DNA of 64,000 nt from an uncultured Gemmatimonadales bacterium (GTDB lineage: Bacteria; Gemmatimonadota; Gemmatimonadetes; Longimicrobiales; RSA9): NCBI GenBank assembly GCA_963741945.1, contig CAVUKA010000002.1, positions 96,001-160,000 of the forward strand, written 5' to 3'. A program made the translations under genes and the position numbers. The notes beneath the pieces were generated by a model. It was not told the origin of the DNA, did not search any database, and saw only the letters and a program-made list of their open reading frames with translations. Each line of letters opens with the position of its first letter. Within the stretch, counting starts at the first letter, position 1. Below, piece after piece: positions 8,707 through 17,419 of this stretch.

Positions 8707-11109
8707 ATGGTCCGGCTGACGATCCTCGGAGACGTTGATCTGCGCGCGGACGACGGCGTGGCCGTCGGCTCCGTGCTGACTCAGCCGCGCCGGTTCGCGC
8801 TCCTCGTCTACCTCGCCCTCGAGTCTGGCGCGGGCGGGATCCAACGCGACCGCCTGCTCGGCGTCTTCTGGCCGGAGACCACGCAGGACCGCGCGCGGCA
8901 GTCGCTCCGCAGCGCGCTCCATTTCCTTCGCCGCTCCCTCGGACCGGACGCCATCGTCACCCGCGGCGACCTCCTCCTTCTCGATCCCGCGCACGTCTGG
9001 TGTGATGCGGTGGAGTTCGGCACCGCTCTCGACGGCGGCCGCGCGGACCACGCGCTCCGGCTCTACGGCGGAGACCTCCTGCCCGGGTTCTTCCTCGACG
9101 AGGGGCCGGTGGAGTTCGAGCGCTGGCTCGAAGAGAGCCGGACCGGGTTCCGCCGGCAGGCCGCCAGCGCCGCCTGGGATCTCGCGCTCGCCGCCGAGCA
9201 GGCGCAGCGACTCCCCGCGGCCGGCGCCTGGGCCCGCAGGGCGGCCGAGCTGTGGGAGCACGACGAGGCCGCCACGCGCCGCGCCATGGACCTGCTCGCC
9301 CGCATCGGGGATCGCGCGGGCGCCCTCGCCGCCTATGATGACCTGGCCCGCCGACTCCGCGATGAGTTCGACAGTGAGCCGAGCCCGGACACGCAGACCA
9401 CGGTCGCGCGCATCCGTGAGGCCGGACCGGCACCGGCGACGGAGCCCTCGCCGGCTCCTCGTCGCACGCACGCTCCGGAGCCATCACCGGCCCCGCCCAC
9501 CCCATCGCGCTGGGCTCGCCGCATCCGACCGCTCACCTCGGGGGCGGTGACGCTGATCCTGATGGCGGCGTTCTTTTCCCTCTGGGGCGTGACCCGGGCG
9601 AACTCCGGACCGGGGCCCGCGACCCCGACGATCCGGCCCGTGGTCGCGATCGAGCCGCTCCGGGACTTCTCCGCAGACGGCAAGGGCGCCGACCTGGCTG
9701 GCGCGCTCACGCTGGAGCTGGTCTCCACTCTGGGCGCCACGCCGGGGTTGACCGTGGTTCCCATCACGGGCCCCGCCTCCGCGGCCGACCCGGACGCCGC
9801 CCGGCGACCGGGATTCATTGTTCGGGCCGGACTGCTGCGCACGGATTCCGCGGTCCGGGTCACCGCGATCCTGCTGGACGGCGAGTCCGGCGCGACGCTC
9901 GGGCGTTTCACCGCCGAGCACCCCCTCGCGGAGAACGCGGTCGTGACGGTCGAGCAGCTGGTGGCGTCCCTCGAGCCGGAAGTGCGGCGCAAGGTTGGTC
10001 GGGCGATGGCCGATTACGGGCGACGCGCGGAAACGCGCAACCTCCGCGCGCTGGGGCTGGTCCGGGACGGCATCCACGACTACACCACCGCCGATTCACT
10101 CCGGAAAGCCGGCTCTCTGGAGACGGCCGCCATGATGTTCGAGGCGGCGGACTCCCAGCTCGTTCTCGCCCAGGCCGAAGCGCCCCGGTGGCCGGAGCCC
10201 TCCGTCCGTCTCGCCGAGTCCGCCCTCGCCCACCTCTGGCTCTTCCTCTTCCAGCCGCAGCGCGACACTGCCGCCGTCGCCGGCACACTGCGCCGCGGAG
10301 CGGCCGCCGCCGAGCACGCGCTCCGCGTCGCCGGCGACGATGCCGCCGCGCTCGAGCTGCGCGGTCGACTCCGCTACTGGACCTGGCTGACCCGATCGAG
10401 CGGCTCGCCAAGCGGCGACCGGACGGCGCTTGCCGGCGCGGAGGCCGACCTCCGGCGGGCCACCGCCCTCGACCCCGGCCGCCCGTTCGCCTGGGCCGTC
10501 CTCAGCTCGATCCTGGAGGCCCGCGCCGATTTCGCGGGCGCCAACATGGCCGCGCTGCGGGCGTATGACGCGGACCCGTACCTGGCTGCCGGGAACGACA
10601 TTCTCGTCCGCCTGTTCACCACCGCGGTGGAGCTCGGCGATGCCGCGGCCGCGGACCGCTGGTGCCAGGAGATCCAGCAGCGGATGGGCGGTGCGTGGCT
10701 GTCCGCATACTGCCAGCTGGAACAGATGGCGTGGACCGGGCTCGGGGGCGTCACGCCCGACTCCGCACTCCACGTTGTGGACCGCGCCACCCGCGGCGAT
10801 CCGGCCGCGGCCGTGGTCCGGCCCAGGCTGCAGCTCCTGGCCGCCGTGGCCATGGCGCGCTCGAAGTTCGACCAGGATGCCAGGCGCACCGTGGCGGCCG
10901 CAGATCCAGACGCGGCGGGAGACCCGGAAACGCAGCAGCTGGAAGCGTGGGCGTGGCTCGTCCTGGGAGAGAAGCAGCGGGCGCTGGACCTTCTGGCGCA
11001 GGTCGCGCGCGCGAATGTCCACGCCCGCGAAGCGCTGCTCCGGAGCCGCCGCTTCGATTCGCTGCGCGACGACGCCGGCTTCCCCGCGATCAGCCTTCCC
11101 CGGGACTGA
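8707..11109 (+). CDS. Transmembrane BTAD/SARP-like regulator: wHTH+BTAD, TM helix, TolB-like N domain, TPR repeats
   Basis: LLVYLAL..RDRLLGVFWPE..ARQSLRSALHFLRR, LYGGDLLPGF, EFERWLE; one TM (LTSGAVTLILMAAFFSLWGV); Ala-rich TPR-like C-terminus. Confidence 0.85.
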   Translation: MVRLTILGDVDLRADDGVAVGSVLTQPRRFALLVYLALESGAGGIQRDRLLGVFWPETTQDRARQSLRSALHFLRRSLGPDAIVTRGDLLLLDPAHVWCDAVEFGTALDGGRADHALRLYGGDLLPGFFLDEGPVEFERWLEESRTGFRRQAASAAWDLALAAEQAQRLPAAGAWARRAAELWEHDEAATRRAMDLLARIGDRAGALAAYDDLARRLRDEFDSEPSPDTQTTVARIREAGPAPATEPSPAPRRTHAPEPSPAPPTPSRWARRIRPLTSGAVTLILMAAFFSLWGVTRANSGPGPATPTIRPVVAIEPLRDFSADGKGADLAGALTLELVSTLGATPGLTVVPITGPASAADPDAARRPGFIVRAGLLRTDSAVRVTAILLDGESGATLGRFTAEHPLAENAVVTVEQLVASLEPEVRRKVGRAMADYGRRAETRNLRALGLVRDGIHDYTTADSLRKAGSLETAAMMFEAADSQLVLAQAEAPRWPEPSVRLAESALAHLWLFLFQPQRDTAAVAGTLRRGAAAAEHALRVAGDDAAALELRGRLRYWTWLTRSSGSPSGDRTALAGAEADLRRATALDPGRPFAWAVLSSILEARADFAGANMAALRAYDADPYLAAGNDILVRLFTTAVELGDAAAADRWCQEIQQRMGGAWLSAYCQLEQMAWTGLGGVTPDSALHVVDRATRGDPAAAVVRPRLQLLAAVAMARSKFDQDARRTVAAADPDAAGDPETQQLEAWAWLVLGEKQRALDLLAQVARANVHAREALLRSRRFDSLRDDAGFPAISLPRD

Positions 11110-11148: not shown

Positions 11149-11325
11149 TCAGAGGTCGGGGGAGCAGTGGATCACACCTTCGATCCACACGCACTCGCCG
11201 CCCTGATCCTGCGTGGATTCCCCCACACCCAGTACGGCGCCATCGCCGCACCCGGAGAATGCGCCGAGCAGCAGCAGCAGAATCGCCCCGGTCAACCCGA
11301 GCCGTACGTTCGAGCGAGTCACCAT
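11149..11325 (-). CDS. Small lipoprotein (58 aa), absent from the ORF track
   Basis: Manual translation MVTRSNVRLGLTGAILLLLLGAFSG|CGDGAVLGVGESTQDQGGECVWIEGVIHCSPDL*; GGGAGG RBS just upstream; lipobox FSGC. Confidence 0.75.
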   Translation of the reverse strand: MVTRSNVRLGLTGAILLLLLGAFSGCGDGAVLGVGESTQDQGGECVWIEGVIHCSPDL

Positions 11326-11430
11326 CCGTCCCTCCCATGTCAGTGGCGTTCACCTGCATGGAAGGTCATCCCGGACGCCCGCGCGCGCATGGGGAATTTT
11401 CCCCTATGTCGTTAACACGCTACTAATTAG

Positions 11431-11455
11431 GGGGGTGTGGACTTGCGTGTGGACG
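11431..11455 (+). repeat. Left terminal inverted repeat, containing GTGTGGAC twice
   Basis: Exact reverse complement of 14342-14366. Confidence 0.95.
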
Positions 11456-11575
11456 CAGAGACTCAAAAACAAGCGTTTAGGCTGAAGATCCGGACGTGCG
11501 TATACCCCGCTGGAGTGGTGGTCCCGAGGCCCCGCCCCCGTTTCGCGACTCGGTAGCCACTCGACGGTCCCCTCC

Positions 11576-11605
11576 TTGACGCAGGTATCGGTAAAACGCT
11601 ATAGT
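11576..11605 (+). promoter_or_regulatory. Sigma70-type promoter of the passenger operon, probably leaderless
   Basis: TTGACG (11576-11581)-N18-TATAGT (11600-11605); ATG 11612 follows after a 6-nt gap; no Shine-Dalgarno. Confidence 0.65.
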
Positions 11606-11611
11606 TGATCC

Positions 11612-12211
11612 ATGACCAGAGACGAGTTGTTGGAAGCGCTCAGGCGCTTGGGCGAACTGGTTCCCCCGAAGGCGCAGATCGTTATCGCCGGGGGCGCCGC
11701 ACTCATTCTCGGCGACTACGTTGACCGAGCCACCGGCGACGGCGACGTAGTGTACGCCAATCCGCCGCTGGCTCATCTCCGGTCGGCGATTCTGCAGGTT
11801 GCGCAGGAGAGGGGGCTTTCCCCCCGCTGGCTGAACGACGGTGTCAAGGCGTTCGGTGACGTCCTGCCCGATGACTTCGACCAACGCACGGACAGAATGG
11901 GCACCTTCGGCAACCTGCGGGTCCTGTTGCTCGGGCGGATGGACTTGATCCTGAGCAAGTTCTACGGGGGACGCGAGGTCGATCTGGAGGACTTGGCCGC
12001 ACTGCACCCGACTGACGAAGAGATCAAGTTCGTCCTCGCCCAACTCGATCGCATCGCGCGATTCCGGCCAGACAAGGCGCTCCGAATGCAACTCTACCTC
12101 GAGCAGGGCGCGGGGAGAGGGGAGCAGGAGGATGAGGCGCCCGTCGTCGATGACGAGGAGGAGCCAGAAGGCCCTTCTCTCGGGGGCGGGAACACCCGAG
12201 GTGGTCCATGA
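11612..12211 (+). CDS. DUF6036/AbiEii-like nucleotidyltransferase
   Basis: IVIAGGAALIL..RATGDGDV (GG..RxTxDxD-type motif), WLNDGV, DLILSKF..R..DLEDL; acidic C-terminal tail. Confidence 0.8.
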   Translation: MTRDELLEALRRLGELVPPKAQIVIAGGAALILGDYVDRATGDGDVVYANPPLAHLRSAILQVAQERGLSPRWLNDGVKAFGDVLPDDFDQRTDRMGTFGNLRVLLLGRMDLILSKFYGGREVDLEDLAALHPTDEEIKFVLAQLDRIARFRPDKALRMQLYLEQGAGRGEQEDEAPVVDDEEEPEGPSLGGGNTRGGP

Positions 12212-12975
12212 CACACGATCAAGAGCGAGATCGACTCGCGGCGGAGTGGGCGCGCGCCGGCGGAGGCTTCATGGTCGAACCGGCGACCTACGCTATCGAC
12301 CTGGAGCAGCTCGTCGGGCGGACAGCGGTAGCCGCACCCAGGGACTACAGAGCACTTGCGGTTGCCACCACCTGGATCGCGCAGCACTCGCAGCTCGTGA
12401 ATGTGCGACGGCTCGGGAAGGTGGCGAACGAACTTGAGGAAACCCCTGCGGCCATTCTCGGCGCGATGATCGAGATCGCTTACGAGACCAACTCGGCGGT
12501 CGACCGGCTGAAGCCCGCCCAACGCCACTGCCGGCCACTACGAGAACCTCGGGCTCTATTCGACCGTACCCAGGCGAATCCAGTCCTCCGGCGCTTCGCG
12601 AAGGAGGGCGCCCTGCCGGCGTTCAAGTCATGGGGGCTGTGGCAGGACGAGCTGACGCTCAAGTTCGACGCACTACGTCCAGTCAGCTGGATCCTGGAGC
12701 ACTGCCCTGAGCTTCGGCTGCGCGCACTCTATGGCCCTGGTCTCGAGGCGGAGGTCATGCAGGTGCTCGACCGAGGGCCTGCAACGATTGCTGCCATAGC
12801 TCGAGAAGTCGACGCGAGCTACTCGGCTACTCACGCCGCCGTAGTCCGGTTGGAGGGTCGCGGTAGCGTTGTATCCCATGATGGCCAAGGCGTTGAGCTC
12901 AGCCCGCCAGTTCGGAGTTGGATCGACAGGTATCCGGCTGTAGCCAGGAAGCACCGAGCGCGGCTGGCGTCGTAA
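12208..12975 (+). CDS. Hypothetical protein with C-terminal winged HTH; partner of the nucleotidyltransferase
   Basis: ATGA overlap with the upstream gene; C-terminal 'EVMQVLDRGPATIAAIAREVDASYSATHAAVVRLEGRG' HTH pattern. Confidence 0.75.
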   Translation: MTHDQERDRLAAEWARAGGGFMVEPATYAIDLEQLVGRTAVAAPRDYRALAVATTWIAQHSQLVNVRRLGKVANELEETPAAILGAMIEIAYETNSAVDRLKPAQRHCRPLREPRALFDRTQANPVLRRFAKEGALPAFKSWGLWQDELTLKFDALRPVSWILEHCPELRLRALYGPGLEAEVMQVLDRGPATIAAIAREVDASYSATHAAVVRLEGRGSVVSHDGQGVELSPPVRSWIDRYPAVARKHRARLAS

Positions 12976-12988
12976 CGGCTGACCTCGG

Positions 12989-14287
12989 TCAACCCTCCGG
13001 AGCCCGCTGCCGTGCTCCACGCAGTCCGGGATATAGCTCGGGCCTGTCGACCAAGCGGCGTGGCGGCGGAGTGCCCTGGTAGCCGAGGTGCTGATCGTGA
13101 AGCACGTGCGCCCACTGGTGCGCCTCGGCGAGCCCGATCTGCGCCAACTGGAAGAGCACGAGGAGGTGCCTTAGCCGGTCGGGGTTCCGTAACGCGAACC
13201 GCCGGTCGAAGAGCGAGTTTTTCACCACCCGGAGCGGCTGCTCCAGCCCGCCTGTGCTCCACGGTGCGTGCTCATTATCGAGGTTGAACTCCACCTCGGG
13301 CGCGATTGCTTCCGCCCACCGGCGAAGCGCCTCAAGCTGGTTCCGCTCCTTTCGGCTCAGCGACTCGACGTGCCCGTCGTCCTCGAGCGTTTCGAGGTTC
13401 AGCCGGAACCAGCCCCAACTCGATTCGCTGGTGAACGTCGTCTCCTTGATGGGCCGCCCGAAGGGGGTTTCGCGGAGCCCGGCCCGACGGACGTGTTCCT
13501 GCGCTTGCATGGTGAGGTGTGCCGTGCACCTGAACACCGGCATCCCGGGCCAGTGCGCGTTGATCGCACCGACGATGGCAGGGTCACCGTCGCAGACGAC
13601 GTAGAGGGGCTGCCCTGGAAGTTGGCGGAAGAAATCAACCCAGGAGGCAACGTCGACCCTCTTGTACGCTCCGTAGCGCCAGACTCGCGGTCTCCGCCAC
13701 TCTGCGTGTGCGTCATCGACCGTACCGTCGCCGTAGGAAAGAGCGCCCAGAACGGAGAACAGGTGACGACCGGACGGCTTCGGGCGGCCATCTGCGTACC
13801 TGGCGCGCCCGTGAAACGGGGCGGAGTCCAGAACCAACACCTCTGGCCACTGCGCGTACTTCGGGTAGTCGTGCAGGAGCTGGGCTTGGAGGATGGGTGC
13901 GTACATGCTCACCCAGTCCCCGGCGATCCGGCCGTCTGCAGAGATCTCGCCGCCTCGTTGGAGCGCTCGTCGGCGAGCGCGACGCGACGCCTGGCGGTAC
14001 GTCGTCCCGTACGCCATCTGGACCAGCGCCTCGGCCTTCTCCCTCAGCGAGAATCGGTCTGTGCGCGCACACGGAAGCCCATCCCCGGGAGTCCAGTTCC
14101 GTTCGCACTCCATGCAGCCGTCCCCGACCGCCTTCCGTGGCAGTGGAGTCGGCTGGAAGAGGTGCGAGTCCCTGCGCCCCCCGCCCGGTGGCACACACCG
14201 CCAACGCTGGTACTGGCCGTTCTTGCCGTACCGTCCGTCACGCCAGACACGACCGTTCGGGTGCTGTGGGCACAGGGGTGTGCGCAT
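12989..14287 (-). CDS. DDE transposase, IS256/Mutator-like (N-terminal Zn ribbon as in the IS1249 group)
   Basis: CPQH..RDGRYGKNGQYQRWRC, second CMEC; catalytic VLVLD, VVCDG, FRCTAH (CxxH), STGGLEQ; lies inside the TIRs. Confidence 0.82.
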   Translation of the reverse strand: MRTPLCPQHPNGRVWRDGRYGKNGQYQRWRCVPPGGGRRDSHLFQPTPLPRKAVGDGCMECERNWTPGDGLPCARTDRFSLREKAEALVQMAYGTTYRQASRRARRRALQRGGEISADGRIAGDWVSMYAPILQAQLLHDYPKYAQWPEVLVLDSAPFHGRARYADGRPKPSGRHLFSVLGALSYGDGTVDDAHAEWRRPRVWRYGAYKRVDVASWVDFFRQLPGQPLYVVCDGDPAIVGAINAHWPGMPVFRCTAHLTMQAQEHVRRAGLRETPFGRPIKETTFTSESSWGWFRLNLETLEDDGHVESLSRKERNQLEALRRWAEAIAPEVEFNLDNEHAPWSTGGLEQPLRVVKNSLFDRRFALRNPDRLRHLLVLFQLAQIGLAEAHQWAHVLHDQHLGYQGTPPPRRLVDRPELYPGLRGARQRAPEG

Positions 14288-14341
14288 ATATGCATTCCTC
14301 GCCTATGCGTGGGGCAAGAAATGCCAATTTCCTCACACAAC

Positions 14342-14366
14342 CGTCCACACGCAAGTCCACACCCCC
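14342..14366 (-). repeat. Right terminal inverted repeat
   Basis: CGTCCACACGCAAGTCCACACCCCC followed by CTAATTAG. Confidence 0.95.
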
Positions 14367-14416
14367 CTAATTAGCGGCACGCATCGCGTCCGTCTCAGCG
14401 CGCCGGAGCCCCGCGG

Positions 14417-14566
14417 TCAGAGAAATCTGCGGATGATCCAGACCACCAGCAGGATCACCCCGATGATCAGGGCCAGGTTGATCAGGAATCCCGCCACCTT
14501 GAAGAGGACGACGGCGACGAGCCAGAGCACGAGCAGGACCACGCCGATCCACAGCAGAGAGCTCAT
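14417..14566 (-). CDS. Small 2-TM membrane protein (DUF5670/lmo0937-like)
   Basis: MSSLLWIGVVLLVLWLV..AGFLINLALIIGVILLVVWIIRRFL; GGAAGG RBS. Confidence 0.75.
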   Translation of the reverse strand: MSSLLWIGVVLLVLWLVAVVLFKVAGFLINLALIIGVILLVVWIIRRFL

Positions 14567-14667
14567 TGCGCACCTTCCAGTCTCATAGGTTTCCGCCCGC
14601 CTGGTGACGGGCATCCGTACGCGCGCTGCCGCGCGCGTGTGTCAGTTCGGTTCCCGGTCGGCATCCA

Positions 14668-15101: not shown

Positions 15102-15155
15102 TCATGGTAGCGTCACCCGCCCCCGGGCGTCCATGCGCAATCCCGATCCCGGCTT

Positions 15156-15411
15156 CCCCGGGAACGGCATTCACGCGAAGACGCGGAGAACGCTGAGGGC
15201 ATCGAACGCGGGGAGACTGTGGCGGCCGGGCACCCTCCCGGGCGAGGCTTCCCCGGCCCAGCAGCCGTCCCGAGATACTCCACCCCGAAGCTGCCGGGCG
15301 CGGGATCGTTGCCTGCCCCGGGAACGGCATTCACGCGAAGACGCGGAGAACGCGGAGGGCATCGAACGCGGGGAGACTGTGGCGGCCGGGCACCCTCCCG
15401 GGCGAGGCTTC
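15156..15411 (+). repeat. 96-bp direct repeat, two copies 160 bp apart, 1 mismatch
   Basis: 15156-15251 vs 15316-15411 (CGCTGAGG vs CGCGGAGG). Confidence 0.92.
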
Positions 15412-15477
15412 GAAGATGGGGATCACGGGCACCATCGATGCCGCTGGAAGCCGAGCCGTTGCCTGCCCCGACAGGCC

Positions 15478-15540
15478 CTCCGCGTTCTTCGCGTCTCCGC
15501 GTGAAACGTTGTTGCGGTTCTCCGCGTTCTTCGCGTCTCC
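15478..15540 (-). repeat. Inverted copies of the TCACGCG(A/G)AGACGCG(G/A)AGAACGCGGAG REP-like motif
   Basis: 15478-15504 is a near reverse complement of 15331-15357; partial copy at 15520-15540. Confidence 0.8.
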
Positions 15541-15752
15541 GGGCTTCCGCCCCGCGGCGGCACCTGCCATATTTCGGACATTCCGGGGGCGAATGAGACT
15601 CCAGGCGCCCCGGGCCCATGTCCGACCACGCACGATCCCGGTGGCGGAATGTTCCTTCAGGCTCGTGCCGTCGCGCGCCCGTCTGCCACCACGTCAGGTG
15701 AGACCCTCCCCGCCCCGCGGGGTTTTTCCCCCTCAGTGATGAGGTGTTTGAA

Positions 15753-16616
15753 ATGCGCGGACGAACTCTCCGGCTCGTTCCCGTGGTACTGGCGACGCTC
15801 GCTGCGGCTGCCTGCGACACCACCACGACCCCTCTCGCTCCTGATGGCGCGGCGCTGGCGCGCGCCGGCTACGACTCGCCCGGGGCGCACAGGCAGTACG
15901 GCGTTCCGATCAGGCTGGGCGACGGCATGGCGCGTGTCTACGTGGTTCTCGACGCCAGGCAGGAGGGTGCGCCGCTCGAGATCGGCATCGCCCTGAGTGA
16001 AAAGGCACTGAACAACCTGTCCGCGTCCGGCCCCACGACATACATGCTTCCGCTCCCGACGCACGCGCCCGAGCCGTACACGTTCGCGATGCTGGACTGG
16101 AACCCGCAGGGCCACGAGCCGCCGGGCGTCTACACGGTTCCGCACTTCGACTTCCACTTCTACACGGTGCCTGAAGCGCAGGTGACCGCGATTCTCCCGT
16201 CCGCCCCCGACTTCGCCAGCGAGGCGAACAACGTCCCCACCGGCGATTTCGTCCCGCCCTATTACGTCGTGCTCGGCCCTCCGGGAAGTGAGCCGGTCGA
16301 CGTGGCGGTACCGCAGATGGGGGTCCACTGGAGCGACGTCCGCTCCCCCGAGCTGCAGGGCATGCTCGGCCACCCGGAAGATTACGAGCCGTTCACGAAA
16401 ACGTTCATCTACGGCTCCTGGGACGGGGAGTTCACGTTCCTCGAGCCGATGGTCACGCGCGGCTACCTGCTCGGCGCGTCGGACGAGATCATCGAGATCC
16501 CGACGCCGGCCGCGCGACCGCAGCCGGGCTGGTACCCGTCCGCATACCGGATCACGTATGACCCGCAGGCGAAGGAATACCGCATCGGACTCACCCATCT
16601 GACCTGGAGCAACTGA
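15753..16616 (+). CDS. DUF5602-like lipoprotein
   Basis: Lipobox AAAC; DWNPQGHEPPGVY.VPHFDFHFY, VPQMGVHW, FIYGSWDG..TFLEPMVT. Confidence 0.8.
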   Translation: MRGRTLRLVPVVLATLAAAACDTTTTPLAPDGAALARAGYDSPGAHRQYGVPIRLGDGMARVYVVLDARQEGAPLEIGIALSEKALNNLSASGPTTYMLPLPTHAPEPYTFAMLDWNPQGHEPPGVYTVPHFDFHFYTVPEAQVTAILPSAPDFASEANNVPTGDFVPPYYVVLGPPGSEPVDVAVPQMGVHWSDVRSPELQGMLGHPEDYEPFTKTFIYGSWDGEFTFLEPMVTRGYLLGASDEIIEIPTPAARPQPGWYPSAYRITYDPQAKEYRIGLTHLTWSN

Positions 16617-16678
16617 GCCGGCCGAGCCCGGCAGTCGGGCGCCGCCGGCACCCGCGCCTGCCGGGTGGCTGAACGGCC

Positions 16679-17419
16679 TCAGCCGGGCCGCTGCAGCGGG
16701 GCGGGGACGACGGCGAAATCGCGCCGGCGGGCACCGGCCGCGGCGTGCTCCCGTCGCACGAACCGCTGCAGTGCCCACCGGTCCCTGAGGGGCTCGCCGT
16801 GGCCGAAGCAGACCACGGCCGGGTCGAGGTCGGCCAGGCGACGGGCCGATGCGAGGTTCCGCTCGTAATCGTGGACGAGGAAGCGGTAGGGCCACGCCAG
16901 CCCGTGCTGCAGCGTCAGGGGATTGCGGTGGAACAGTACATCGCCCAGCACCAGGACCCGGTCCTGCTCGCGCCAGAACGCCAGGTGACCGGGCGTATGT
17001 CCGGGCGTCTCCAGGACCGTGAACCCGCCCACGACGTCGCCCTCACGGATCACCCGGGTCACGGCGTGGCCGGGCCCCGCGAGCCGCCGCGCGAGCCGCG
17101 CGATGAAGCGATCCCGATCCGGGTAGAGGAGAGACCCGTCTCCCGCCTCCACGGCCTGACGCTCGGGGCCGCCGCACGCCAGCGGGATTCCGAGCGCGTC
17201 GCAGAGGCCGTGGGCCCCGCCCTGGTGGTCGAAATGACCGTGGGTCAGGGCGAGGCCGGCAACGCGCTTGCCGCCCAGCCTCTTCAGGATCCGGCGCACG
17301 GCTCCCGGCCCGCCCGCGTCCACCAGGACATCGCCCATCAGGTAGACATTGACCAGGTCCAGCGGGAGGAGGGCCAGCCGGAGCAGGCCGGGCACCACCT
17401 CGGTGAAAGCCGCCATCAT
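16679..17419 (-). CDS. Metallo-beta-lactamase-fold hydrolase
   Basis: THGHFDHQGG, TPGHTPGH, GD, FGHG motifs. Confidence 0.88.
   Translation of the reverse strand: MMAAFTEVVPGLLRLALLPLDLVNVYLMGDVLVDAGGPGAVRRILKRLGGKRVAGLALTHGHFDHQGGAHGLCDALGIPLACGGPERQAVEAGDGSLLYPDRDRFIARLARRLAGPGHAVTRVIREGDVVGGFTVLETPGHTPGHLAFWREQDRVLVLGDVLFHRNPLTLQHGLAWPYRFLVHDYERNLASARRLADLDPAVVCFGHGEPLRDRWALQRFVRREHAAAGARRRDFAVVPAPLQRPG

Follow-up and report, generated by a model that had tools for sequence, protein, structure and literature searches.

A transporter insertion sequence with a two-gene cargo, from a Mutator/IS256-related clade, in the genome of an uncultured Gemmatimonadales bacterium

The stretch of DNA analysed here (the window: 64,000 nucleotides, positions 96,001 to 160,000 of contig CAVUKA010000002.1 in assembly GCA_963741945.1 of an uncultured Gemmatimonadales bacterium) contains, at positions 11431-14366, an intact transporter insertion sequence (tIS). 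A tIS is defined as an insertion sequence-like element that has its own repeats and holds passenger genes inside them (PMC9330008; this and the other papers cited below were available to us in excerpts, and what is taken from them is limited to those excerpts). The window element shows this organisation, since its own repeats bound it and two passenger genes lie inside them, between the left repeat and the transposase gene. Considering all the evidence together, we regard it as very probable that the element belongs to an unclassified clade of the Mutator/IS256 superfamily, that it uses AT-rich palindromes as targets and that its cargo was captured in one lineage. Its features, in window coordinates, are the following.

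11431-14366: the whole element, 2936 bp, bounded by perfect 25-bp terminal inverted repeats
11423..11430, no strand: left copy of the probable target-site duplication, CTAATTAG; the identical 8-mer stands at both ends, and other ends of the family are flanked differently
11431..11455, plus strand: 25-bp left terminal inverted repeat, containing GTGTGGAC twice at a spacing of 12 nt
11455..13025, no strand: cargo segment, probably captured, 1571 bp; bypassed in the short form seen in metagenomic run X2; positions 11585-12978 are 82% identical to a transposase-free locus of genome G307
11576..11605, plus strand: promoter-like site TTGACG-18-TATAGT, a consensus match only, ending 6 nt before cargo gene 1
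11612..12211, plus strand: cargo gene 1, predicted DUF6036 nucleotidyltransferase, 199 aa (Pfam PF19502)
12208..12975, plus strand: cargo gene 2, 255 aa, predicted helical N-terminal domain of no recognised family followed by a C-terminal winged helix
12989..14287, minus strand: predicted DDE transposase, 432 aa, with an N-terminal Cys/His domain (C6, H9, C31, H42, C58, C61), helices at about 81-145 and the core residues D154, D233, C254xxH257 and E349
14342..14366, minus strand: 25-bp right terminal inverted repeat; 54 nt of inner sequence separate it from the transposase start codon
14367..14374, no strand: right copy of the probable target-site duplication, CTAATTAG, found by direct reading, inverted-repeat search and genome count

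The boundaries of the element are marked by one inverted repeat of 33 nt, 100% complementary, whose arms lie at 11423-11455 and 14342-14374. Each arm is made of the octamer CTAATTAG and the 25-nt repeat GGGGGTGTGGACTTGCGTGTGGACG, within which GTGTGGAC is present twice at a spacing of 12 nt, and a perfect match of this length in 64 kb cannot arise by chance. Between the arms there are three open reading frames (ORFs) of 199, 255 and 432 aa, none of them interrupted. With up to three mismatches allowed, the 25-mer occurs in the whole genome (4,088,639 bases) only at the two ends of the element, with no match for the controls; the element is present in one copy in this 4.09-Mb assembly of 8 contigs. 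The octamer CTAATTAG itself occurs exactly twice in the genome, both times adjoining the element, where base composition predicts 5.7 occurrences. The guanine-plus-cytosine (GC) content of the element is 0.652, versus 0.700 for the genome and 0.723 for the remainder of the window, and GC at third codon positions is 0.71-0.80 in the three element genes versus 0.88-0.92 in two host ORFs nearby; this last contrast is not uniform, a third ORF of the window (15657-16895) reaching only 0.65. An earlier note on this DNA, made from the sequence alone, had described the perfect 25-bp repeats with their two units 12 bp apart, the same 8-mer on both sides and the low GC content, and had called the element an intact tIS. 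The inverted-repeat search and direct reading agree with this description, and the genome-wide search for further repeat copies that it advised yielded none; the reading as an intact tIS is likewise borne out by the perfect repeats, the uninterrupted ORFs and the occurrence of the cargo pair elsewhere without a transposase.

The 432-aa protein is, on sequence and predicted structure, a DDE transposase. In an alignment of 50 sequences sharing 27-86% identity with the query, D154, D233, H257, H42, C58 and C61 are invariant (50/50), and C31 (49/50), C6, H9 and E349 (each 48/50) and C254 (44/50) are nearly so. The D..D..CxxH..E layout that the earlier note had read in this ORF is thus conserved in its relatives, and the N-terminal Cys/His motifs, which had seemed unusual, are real and a hallmark of the wider family. 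The AF2 model built on this alignment (mean pLDDT 90.9, pTM 0.87) was compared with the PDB using Foldseek, which returned eight matches at E <= 0.001; the top five chains were all ISCth4, an IS256-family transposase (best E 1e-7), followed by Hermes and Mos1. VIA-align superposed residues 76-386 of the model on ISCth4 with Z 14.1 and a root-mean-square deviation of 5.2 over 265 aligned residues, compared with Z 11.6 for Hermes and at most 9.7 for retroviral integrases. An RNase H-like DDE fold, the lack of which would have spoken against the earlier proposal, is therefore predicted, with the ISCth4 DDE transposase as its best match. In the model, short strands but no helix make up the N-terminal 75 residues, which contain the six conserved Cys/His residues; residues 414-432 are disordered. 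The same genome also contains a canonical IS256-family element (L154, 1259-2735, G000:C6; about 1477 bp, imperfect 30-nt repeats), whose 435-aa transposase scores 334.5 bits on the IS256 model and served as in-genome comparator. Aligned with hhalign, the 50-sequence profile matches the catalytic region of this transposase over 222 columns with a probability of 96% (E 4.9e-9); with BLASTP, only a segment of 61 residues surrounding the second aspartate is recognised, at 36% identity. The conserved DDE residues with C254xxH257, the ISCth4 match and the hhalign result together agree with the fold of IS256/Mutator enzymes, and the divergent enzyme of this type that had been claimed stands.

Scores obtained with existing family models count against this assignment. 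The transposase reaches 21.8 bits with the NCBIfam IS256 model NF033543 (22.7 in the genome scan; cut-off 150), 21.7 bits with the IS1249 model NF033544 (cut-off 300), 11.6 bits with the ISH6 model NF041731 (cut-off 240) and 14.0 bits with Pfam PF00872 Transposase_mut (gathering threshold 21); in PDB sequences neither phmmer nor the family profile found a transposase, the profile missing the ISCth4 sequence. The Pfam MULE score (17.1 bits) is below threshold too, a Pfam scan of the N-terminal 80 residues alone gave nothing meaningful, and PHROGs contained no match for any of the three element proteins. The relatives behave in a similar way. A word-indexed search found eight (41-86% identity) and an exhaustive HMMER search 679 cluster representatives at E <= 0.001, 330 of them at 1e-10 and 45 at 1e-30. 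When 40 representatives were scanned, none reached any NCBIfam cut-off, 18 had matches below threshold to IS256, IS1249 or ISH6 (at best 35.5 bits on the IS1249 and 23.9 bits on the ISH6 model), five passed Pfam Transposase_mut (23.2-34.5 bits) and two passed MULE, which suggests that the clade touches the Transposase_mut family only at its edge. All members of the ten nearest transposase clusters are metagenomic proteins, either hypothetical or without name. By fold and profile, the transposase thus appears to be a true member of the Mutator/IS256 superfamily, but not of the IS256, IS1249 or ISH6 families as currently modelled; it would represent an unnamed, mostly metagenomic and so far unclassified branch.

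The element most resembles IS256-type elements, of which ISCth4 is the best described comparator (D175, D241, C262/H265 and E348; 1503 bp; 8-bp duplications; three helical N-terminal domains; PMC7780238). As far as the available excerpts go, the catalytic layout is the same, with the CxxH motif 21 residues after the second aspartate in both enzymes. Other likenesses to IS256 are the alpha-helical insertion domain, the single transposase ORF, repeats of about 25 bp and a probable 8-bp duplication. Perfect 25-bp repeats and an identical flanking 8-mer agree with the few tens of bp and the 8-9-bp duplications that characterise the family, although the palindromic nature of the 8-mer makes the length of the duplication ambiguous. 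In size, the cargo-free form discussed below (1365 bp) is comparable to ISCth4 and to the canonical element of the same genome. The two differ at the N-terminus, where the first 75 residues of the window transposase form a strand-containing Cys/His domain while ISCth4, in the excerpts at hand, has helical dimerisation and DNA-binding domains. They also differ in the repeats: a subterminal TGTAAA is noted as conserved in IS256-family repeats (PMC7780238, excerpts) and the canonical element of this genome begins with TGTAAG, whereas GGGGGTGTGGACTTGCGTGTGGACG lacks TGTAAA and has TGTGGA twice in its place. Finally, the window element bears cargo, and in the literature searched, as available in excerpts, we found no IS256-type tIS with this cargo. 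Resemblance to IS1249 consists of the 21.7 bits mentioned above, which equal the IS256 level, and of an Atlas neighbour cluster that was automatically named IS1249 family (score 0.94); against it, this score is far under the 300-bit cut-off, which 0/40 relatives reach, and the match leaves the N-terminal region uncovered. Actinomycetota, in which IS1249 is commonest, are also the most frequent source of the nearest Atlas clusters.

The target site can be approached through other ends of the same element family. A metagenome contig (L008) encoding an 88%-identical transposase carries the identical 25-nt repeat, with GATAAGAG where the window has CTAATTAG. In Logan contigs of X2 and X9, two runs from other studies, the repeat adjoins CCGATTAG at the left end in X2, the complement of CGGATTAC at the right end in X2 and the complement of CTATTGGC at the right end in X9. 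A solo remnant in genome G428 (L152 8202-8225; G428:C42:46201-46224), with no transposase within 8.2 kb, retains the outer 17 nt of the repeat exactly, next to the AT-rich CATAAGAG. Altogether, five family ends other than those in the window carry GATAAGAG, CATAAGAG, CCGATTAG, GCCAATAG or GTAATCCG in place of CTAATTAG. Because these ends bear other flanks, CTAATTAG is most readily read as target DNA and not as part of the repeat, as the earlier note had favoured. The five flanks are nevertheless not random: read toward the repeat, they have G at -1 (5/5), A at -2 (4/5), A or T at -4 (5/5) and A at -5 (5/5), and their hosts are rich in GC. Folding this half-site onto both ends of an 8-bp duplication gives about CTNATNAG, which CTAATTAG fits perfectly. 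The target thus seems to be an AT-centred, roughly palindromic octamer of about this form, as judged from six flanks and one complete copy. At 70% GC, this genome offers few sites of this kind: there are nine occurrences of CTWWWWAG, and octamers with six or more A/T make up only 0.59% of the total. The AT-rich target preference put forward earlier gains support from both the flanks and this rarity.

In this respect the element recalls ISH6 (p-MULT 2), which duplicates the AT-rich palindromic octamer AANATNTT, while no target motif was found for IS256 proper (p-MULT 1; PMC3942029, section 12, excerpts), from which the window element would differ by its target preference. Its transposase is, as in ISH6, a distant Mutator-like enzyme, and the proposed CTNATNAG shares the central NATN with AANATNTT. 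They differ in the ISH6 model score, far below its cut-off, in the mostly archaeal hosts of ISH6 and in the outer bases of the motif, the consensus here representing six flanks; the one complete duplication and the five single flanks fit about CTNATNAG, which would resemble the behaviour of ISH6 without being its motif.

The exact tip of the repeat deserves more caution, as a complete copy with both flanks is available only once and its palindromic flank is compatible with a duplication of 8, 6 or 4 bp. It is rather unlikely that the repeat starts one or two bases further out (26-27 bp, beginning at G or AG), with a duplication of 6 bp (TAATTA) or 4 bp (AATT). G at -1 in 6/6 observed ends, A at -2 in 5/6 and an X6 contig that also has AG ahead of the repeat speak for this possibility; taken alone, the constant G would suit a 26-bp repeat with a 6-bp duplication just as well. 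On the other hand, C stands at -2 in one of the flanks, the G run is variable in the G428 remnant, and the relatives with known biology, ISCth4 (PMC7780238) and ISH6 (PMC3942029), duplicate 8 bp according to the available excerpts. In addition, a cargo-bearing X2 contig starts exactly at 11431, which is what would be expected of an assembly-graph branch at the true tip if copies differ at -1 and would favour 25 + 8. The possibility that CTAATTAG belongs to the element, which would then have 33-bp repeats and no target duplication, was admitted in the earlier note, since a single window copy with a palindromic 8-mer permits it, but can be all but set aside given the different octamers in L008, X2, X9 and G428.

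The two cargo genes form a compact operon-like pair, the start of gene 2 overlapping the stop of gene 1 by 4 nt. The promoter-like site upstream of gene 1 matches the consensus at 10/12 positions and is the sole such site in the element (mean of 0.5 in shuffled sequence); the same scan found none upstream of the transposase gene. Cargo gene 1 passes the gathering threshold of Pfam PF19502 (E 1.1e-12; 48.5 bits, threshold 23.6). In 25 sequences the residues G27, G28, D45, D111 and K116 never vary and D43 is kept in at least 90%, forming a GG...DxD...D signature of the Pol-beta type. No Pfam family other than DUF6036 matches it at E <= 1, DUF1814/AbiEii included, nor does PADLOC. All but one of its 47 homologues carry PF19502, and we found no mention of DUF6036 in the literature searched. 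For cargo gene 2, the AF2 model (mean pLDDT 94.2) shows a C-terminal part (residues 157-255) that resembles the winged helices of MarR, ArsR and IclR, with Z up to 9.9, whereas two PDB searches, both made with the whole model, gave no match to the N-terminal part. Its 62 homologues are all annotated as hypothetical. Homologues of both genes are mostly 73-95% identical, and the named organisms belong to Gemmatimonadota, to Longimicrobiales or neighbouring groups.

What this pair does can only be guessed from resemblance. We tentatively suggest, at somewhat less than even probability, that it could be an addiction or toxin-antitoxin-like module akin to AbiE/MenAT and would thereby contribute to stabilising or spreading the element. 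This guess follows from the overlapping bicistron, the small size, the patchy, islet-like distribution (a cargo gene 2 homologue is found in 6/400 other genomes of the phylum sample) and the location on a mobile element; Tn3 transposons are known to carry toxin-antitoxin pairs as passengers (PMC9330008, excerpts). With AbiE/MenAT, as described in the excerpts available, the pair shares the bicistronic overlapping arrangement, in which a small nucleotidyltransferase of the Pol-beta type is combined with a winged-helix protein of two domains, and the occurrence as a patchy two-gene islet on mobile DNA. It differs from them by having no DUF1814/AbiEii or PADLOC match, by the C-terminal position of the winged helix and by the gene order. 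It is common for small nucleotidyltransferases to be paired with a winged-helix regulator, and the conserved GG...DxD...D motif suggests that cargo gene 1 may encode an active enzyme. Both points would also suit a nucleotidyltransferase modifying small molecules, for instance antibiotics, accompanied by its own MarR-like regulator. We nevertheless consider this improbable: no named transferase family of Pfam or NCBIfam matches at E <= 1, the 155-residue N-terminal domain of cargo gene 2 is unlike MarR effectors, and the 4-nt overlap, the patchy distribution and the islet placement fit addiction modules better.

Several observations indicate that the pair was acquired by the element from elsewhere. 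In five genomic loci of the same phylum, out of seven retrieved, the cargo genes are adjacent to one another without a transposase or the repeat, and these free-standing pairs neighbour housekeeping genes, for example between purL and purF or beside trpD and truA. The G307 locus matches the window from 11585 to 12978 at 82%. In G428, cargo gene 2 is also represented by a copy truncated at its 5' end (L142); an 8-mer GTGTGGAC beside it was judged a chance occurrence. Consistent with this, the cargo pair appears to be an autonomous two-gene module captured by the element. The cargo form itself exists in a second study: a contig of 1685 nt from X2, a run belonging to a different study from X1, the best-matching run, covers 11431-13113 with 55 differences and 4 gaps, spanning the left repeat, the cargo and the 3' end of the transposase gene. 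A second X2 contig joins 11454 to 13026, omitting 1571 bp, which would give a cargo-free element of 1365 bp. This soil metagenome thus appears to hold both forms. When the joint is modelled with the window's flank, a 429-aa frame stays open, its last eight codons lying in the repeat and its stop being provided by the first flank bases; the tail replaced corresponds to the disordered residues 414-432. Transposase relatives are mostly found on contigs of 1.4-2.2 kb, which fit a one-gene ancestral form.

Since the pair is free-standing elsewhere, the X2 joint would give a cargo-free form and the contigs of relatives are mostly short, the cargo is probably a recent, lineage-specific capture and not a trait of the subfamily, so that the cargo-carrying subfamily suggested in the earlier note is not supported.

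Some further contigs touch on these forms. Two X2 contigs join 11456 to 14340/14341, that is, the left repeat almost directly to the right one, which would make a palindrome of about 54 bp; either an assembly or library artefact or a minimal form derived from the element could account for it. X9 contains the cargo pair (11575-13050) at about 90-98% likeness but no transposase reaching 88%; one contig departs from the window at 13050, some 60 nt inside the 3' end of the transposase gene, and a bare repeat is found separately next to unrelated DNA. In L008, the last 76 nt past the transposase stop contain no repeat and do not align with the window cargo; a similarity of nine residues with the end of cargo gene 2 was too weak to be retained.

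No full-length transposase was found in 60 relatives, one of which has a 41-aa relic, or in the 400 genomes of the phylum sample, and for this reason the element probably reached this genome by horizontal transfer. The relic (L007 1501-1623, genome G032 of the host's family) is 73% identical to the C-terminal part of the transposase over 41 residues, has no repeat alongside and is a decayed trace of a related element. The transposase search of the genome contigs gave 26 pattern matches, none of them a relative; tblastn of plasmids gave no match, and the repeat was not found in viral contigs. A sample from a second phylum, Actinomycetota as named by the Atlas, yielded a single 136-aa fragment in 1/401 genomes. 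With up to three mismatches, the repeat was found in 2/400 other genomes of the phylum sample versus 5 control matches, which is the chance level except for G428 with its 17 exact outer bases. The two-unit motif of the repeat occurs in at least 120 stretches of genome contigs, and none of the 128 loci encodes the transposase, so that these were taken as chance matches.

Besides the model scores and the single complete copy, other points weigh against the overall explanation and should be set against the evidence above. The short form is seen on one Logan contig only, with 29 letters on the repeat side and 88% likeness, and the 23 loose letters of flank at 11426 would belong to the same contig; Logan joints may stem from other organisms or from repeats, the stretch between being not known, and the depths of these contigs are contig means and not copy numbers. 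The cargo pair matches no PADLOC defence system, PHROGs or AbiE-type Pfam family, the two weak CasR matches in PADLOC (E 0.017 and 0.035) lying on the winged helix of cargo gene 2, and its gene order, with the nucleotidyltransferase first, is the reverse of AbiE. As for mobility, a copy-out/paste-in mode is assumed from the family. The empty site and the circle junctions recommended earlier as checks were not seen: genome G001, of the same genus, conserves only the right flank (from 14401, 81%) and its left side is not syntenic, so that no empty site is readable there, and neither the joint 11422 to 14375 expected of an empty site nor a right-to-left circle junction is among the joints listed for four runs, whose contigs drop rare forms. 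RNA evidence for the element was not found among the datasets listed either.

Together with the single copy in the genome and the lack of a promoter-like site upstream of the transposase gene in the element scan, these last results would suit a dead, immobile relic. We judge this decidedly improbable, as the element has perfect repeats and an intact 432-aa ORF with all catalytic residues present, and near-identical cargo-bearing DNA occurs in a run of another study, where the repeat adjoins other flanks. Still less probable is that the two extra genes serve as accessory transposition functions, one perhaps as a DNA-binding regulator and the other as a helper enzyme, instead of being passengers. 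Their position inside the repeats, the winged helix predicted in one of the proteins, which could bind DNA, and the convergence of the cargo operon on the transposase gene might be taken in this sense, but the pair stands alone among housekeeping genes at five loci of other genomes, a cargo-free form seems to exist, and close homologues number 62 and 47 for the two cargo genes versus 8 for the transposase.

We therefore return to the interpretation as a tIS with captured cargo, for which the following course of events may be envisaged. The ancestor would have been a one-gene insertion sequence of 1365 bp, a form for which the X2 joint gives partial evidence; in it the stop codon of the transposase would be supplied by the target, as the few available data suggest. 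The transposase would bind the 25-bp repeats, the two GTGTGGAC units being candidate sites for the N-terminal domains, and, by analogy with IS256 and ISCth4, the element would be copied out as a circle and then pasted into an AT-centred, roughly palindromic octamer of about CTNATNAG, with duplication of 8 bp. In one lineage, 1571 bp holding the two-gene operon may have been captured between the left repeat and the 3' end of the transposase gene. This operon, comprising the DUF6036 nucleotidyltransferase, the winged-helix protein and a promoter-like site of its own, would have been self-contained. The element would then have entered the present genome by horizontal transfer.

The known picture of insertion sequences is not overturned by these results. 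They add a well-delimited and apparently active member to a Mutator/IS256-related clade that lacks curated names and is known almost only as metagenomic 'hypothetical proteins'. They also provide a natural example of a one-gene insertion sequence turning into a gene vehicle, in which cargo capture is apparently caught in the act, with both forms seemingly next to each other in one sample and the cargo free-standing in related genomes. The proposed palindromic AT-rich target, in parallel to ISH6, offers a testable handle on target choice in the superfamily, and the cargo, a conserved two-gene module on which we found no literature, can reasonably be considered, given its place on a mobile element, as a candidate new pair of toxin-antitoxin-like or defence-like type. 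A broader proposal, which we find doubtful as a whole, is that the transposase and its 679 representative relatives might constitute a sixth, unnamed lineage of prokaryotic Mutator-like enzymes, in which an N-terminal set of six invariant Cys/His ligands would replace the helical DNA-binding array of IS256 and which would home to AT-centred palindromic octamers of about CTNATNAG. In the basic form of 1.37 kb, the transposase frame would continue without a stop across the left repeat and end at a stop codon supplied by the target, and one lineage would be spreading the captured nucleotidyltransferase and winged-helix pair as an addiction or defence module among soil and sediment bacteria.

In the window, the insertion is intergenic, about 100 bp upstream of a lipoprotein-like ORF of 58 aa (11149-11325, minus strand) and 43 bp downstream of a membrane-protein ORF of 65 aa (14417-14614, minus strand). 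Further to the left, an ORF of 800 aa (8707-11109, plus strand) looks by eye like a regulator that combines an N-terminal region for DNA binding with a long one of helical repeats. An intergenic repeat cluster (15126-15541) is found some 750 nt beyond the right end of the element; in it, a 99-nt direct repeat is present at 15153-15251 and 15313-15411 with 98% identity, and 31-nt inverted units are found at 15330-15360 and 15475-15505.

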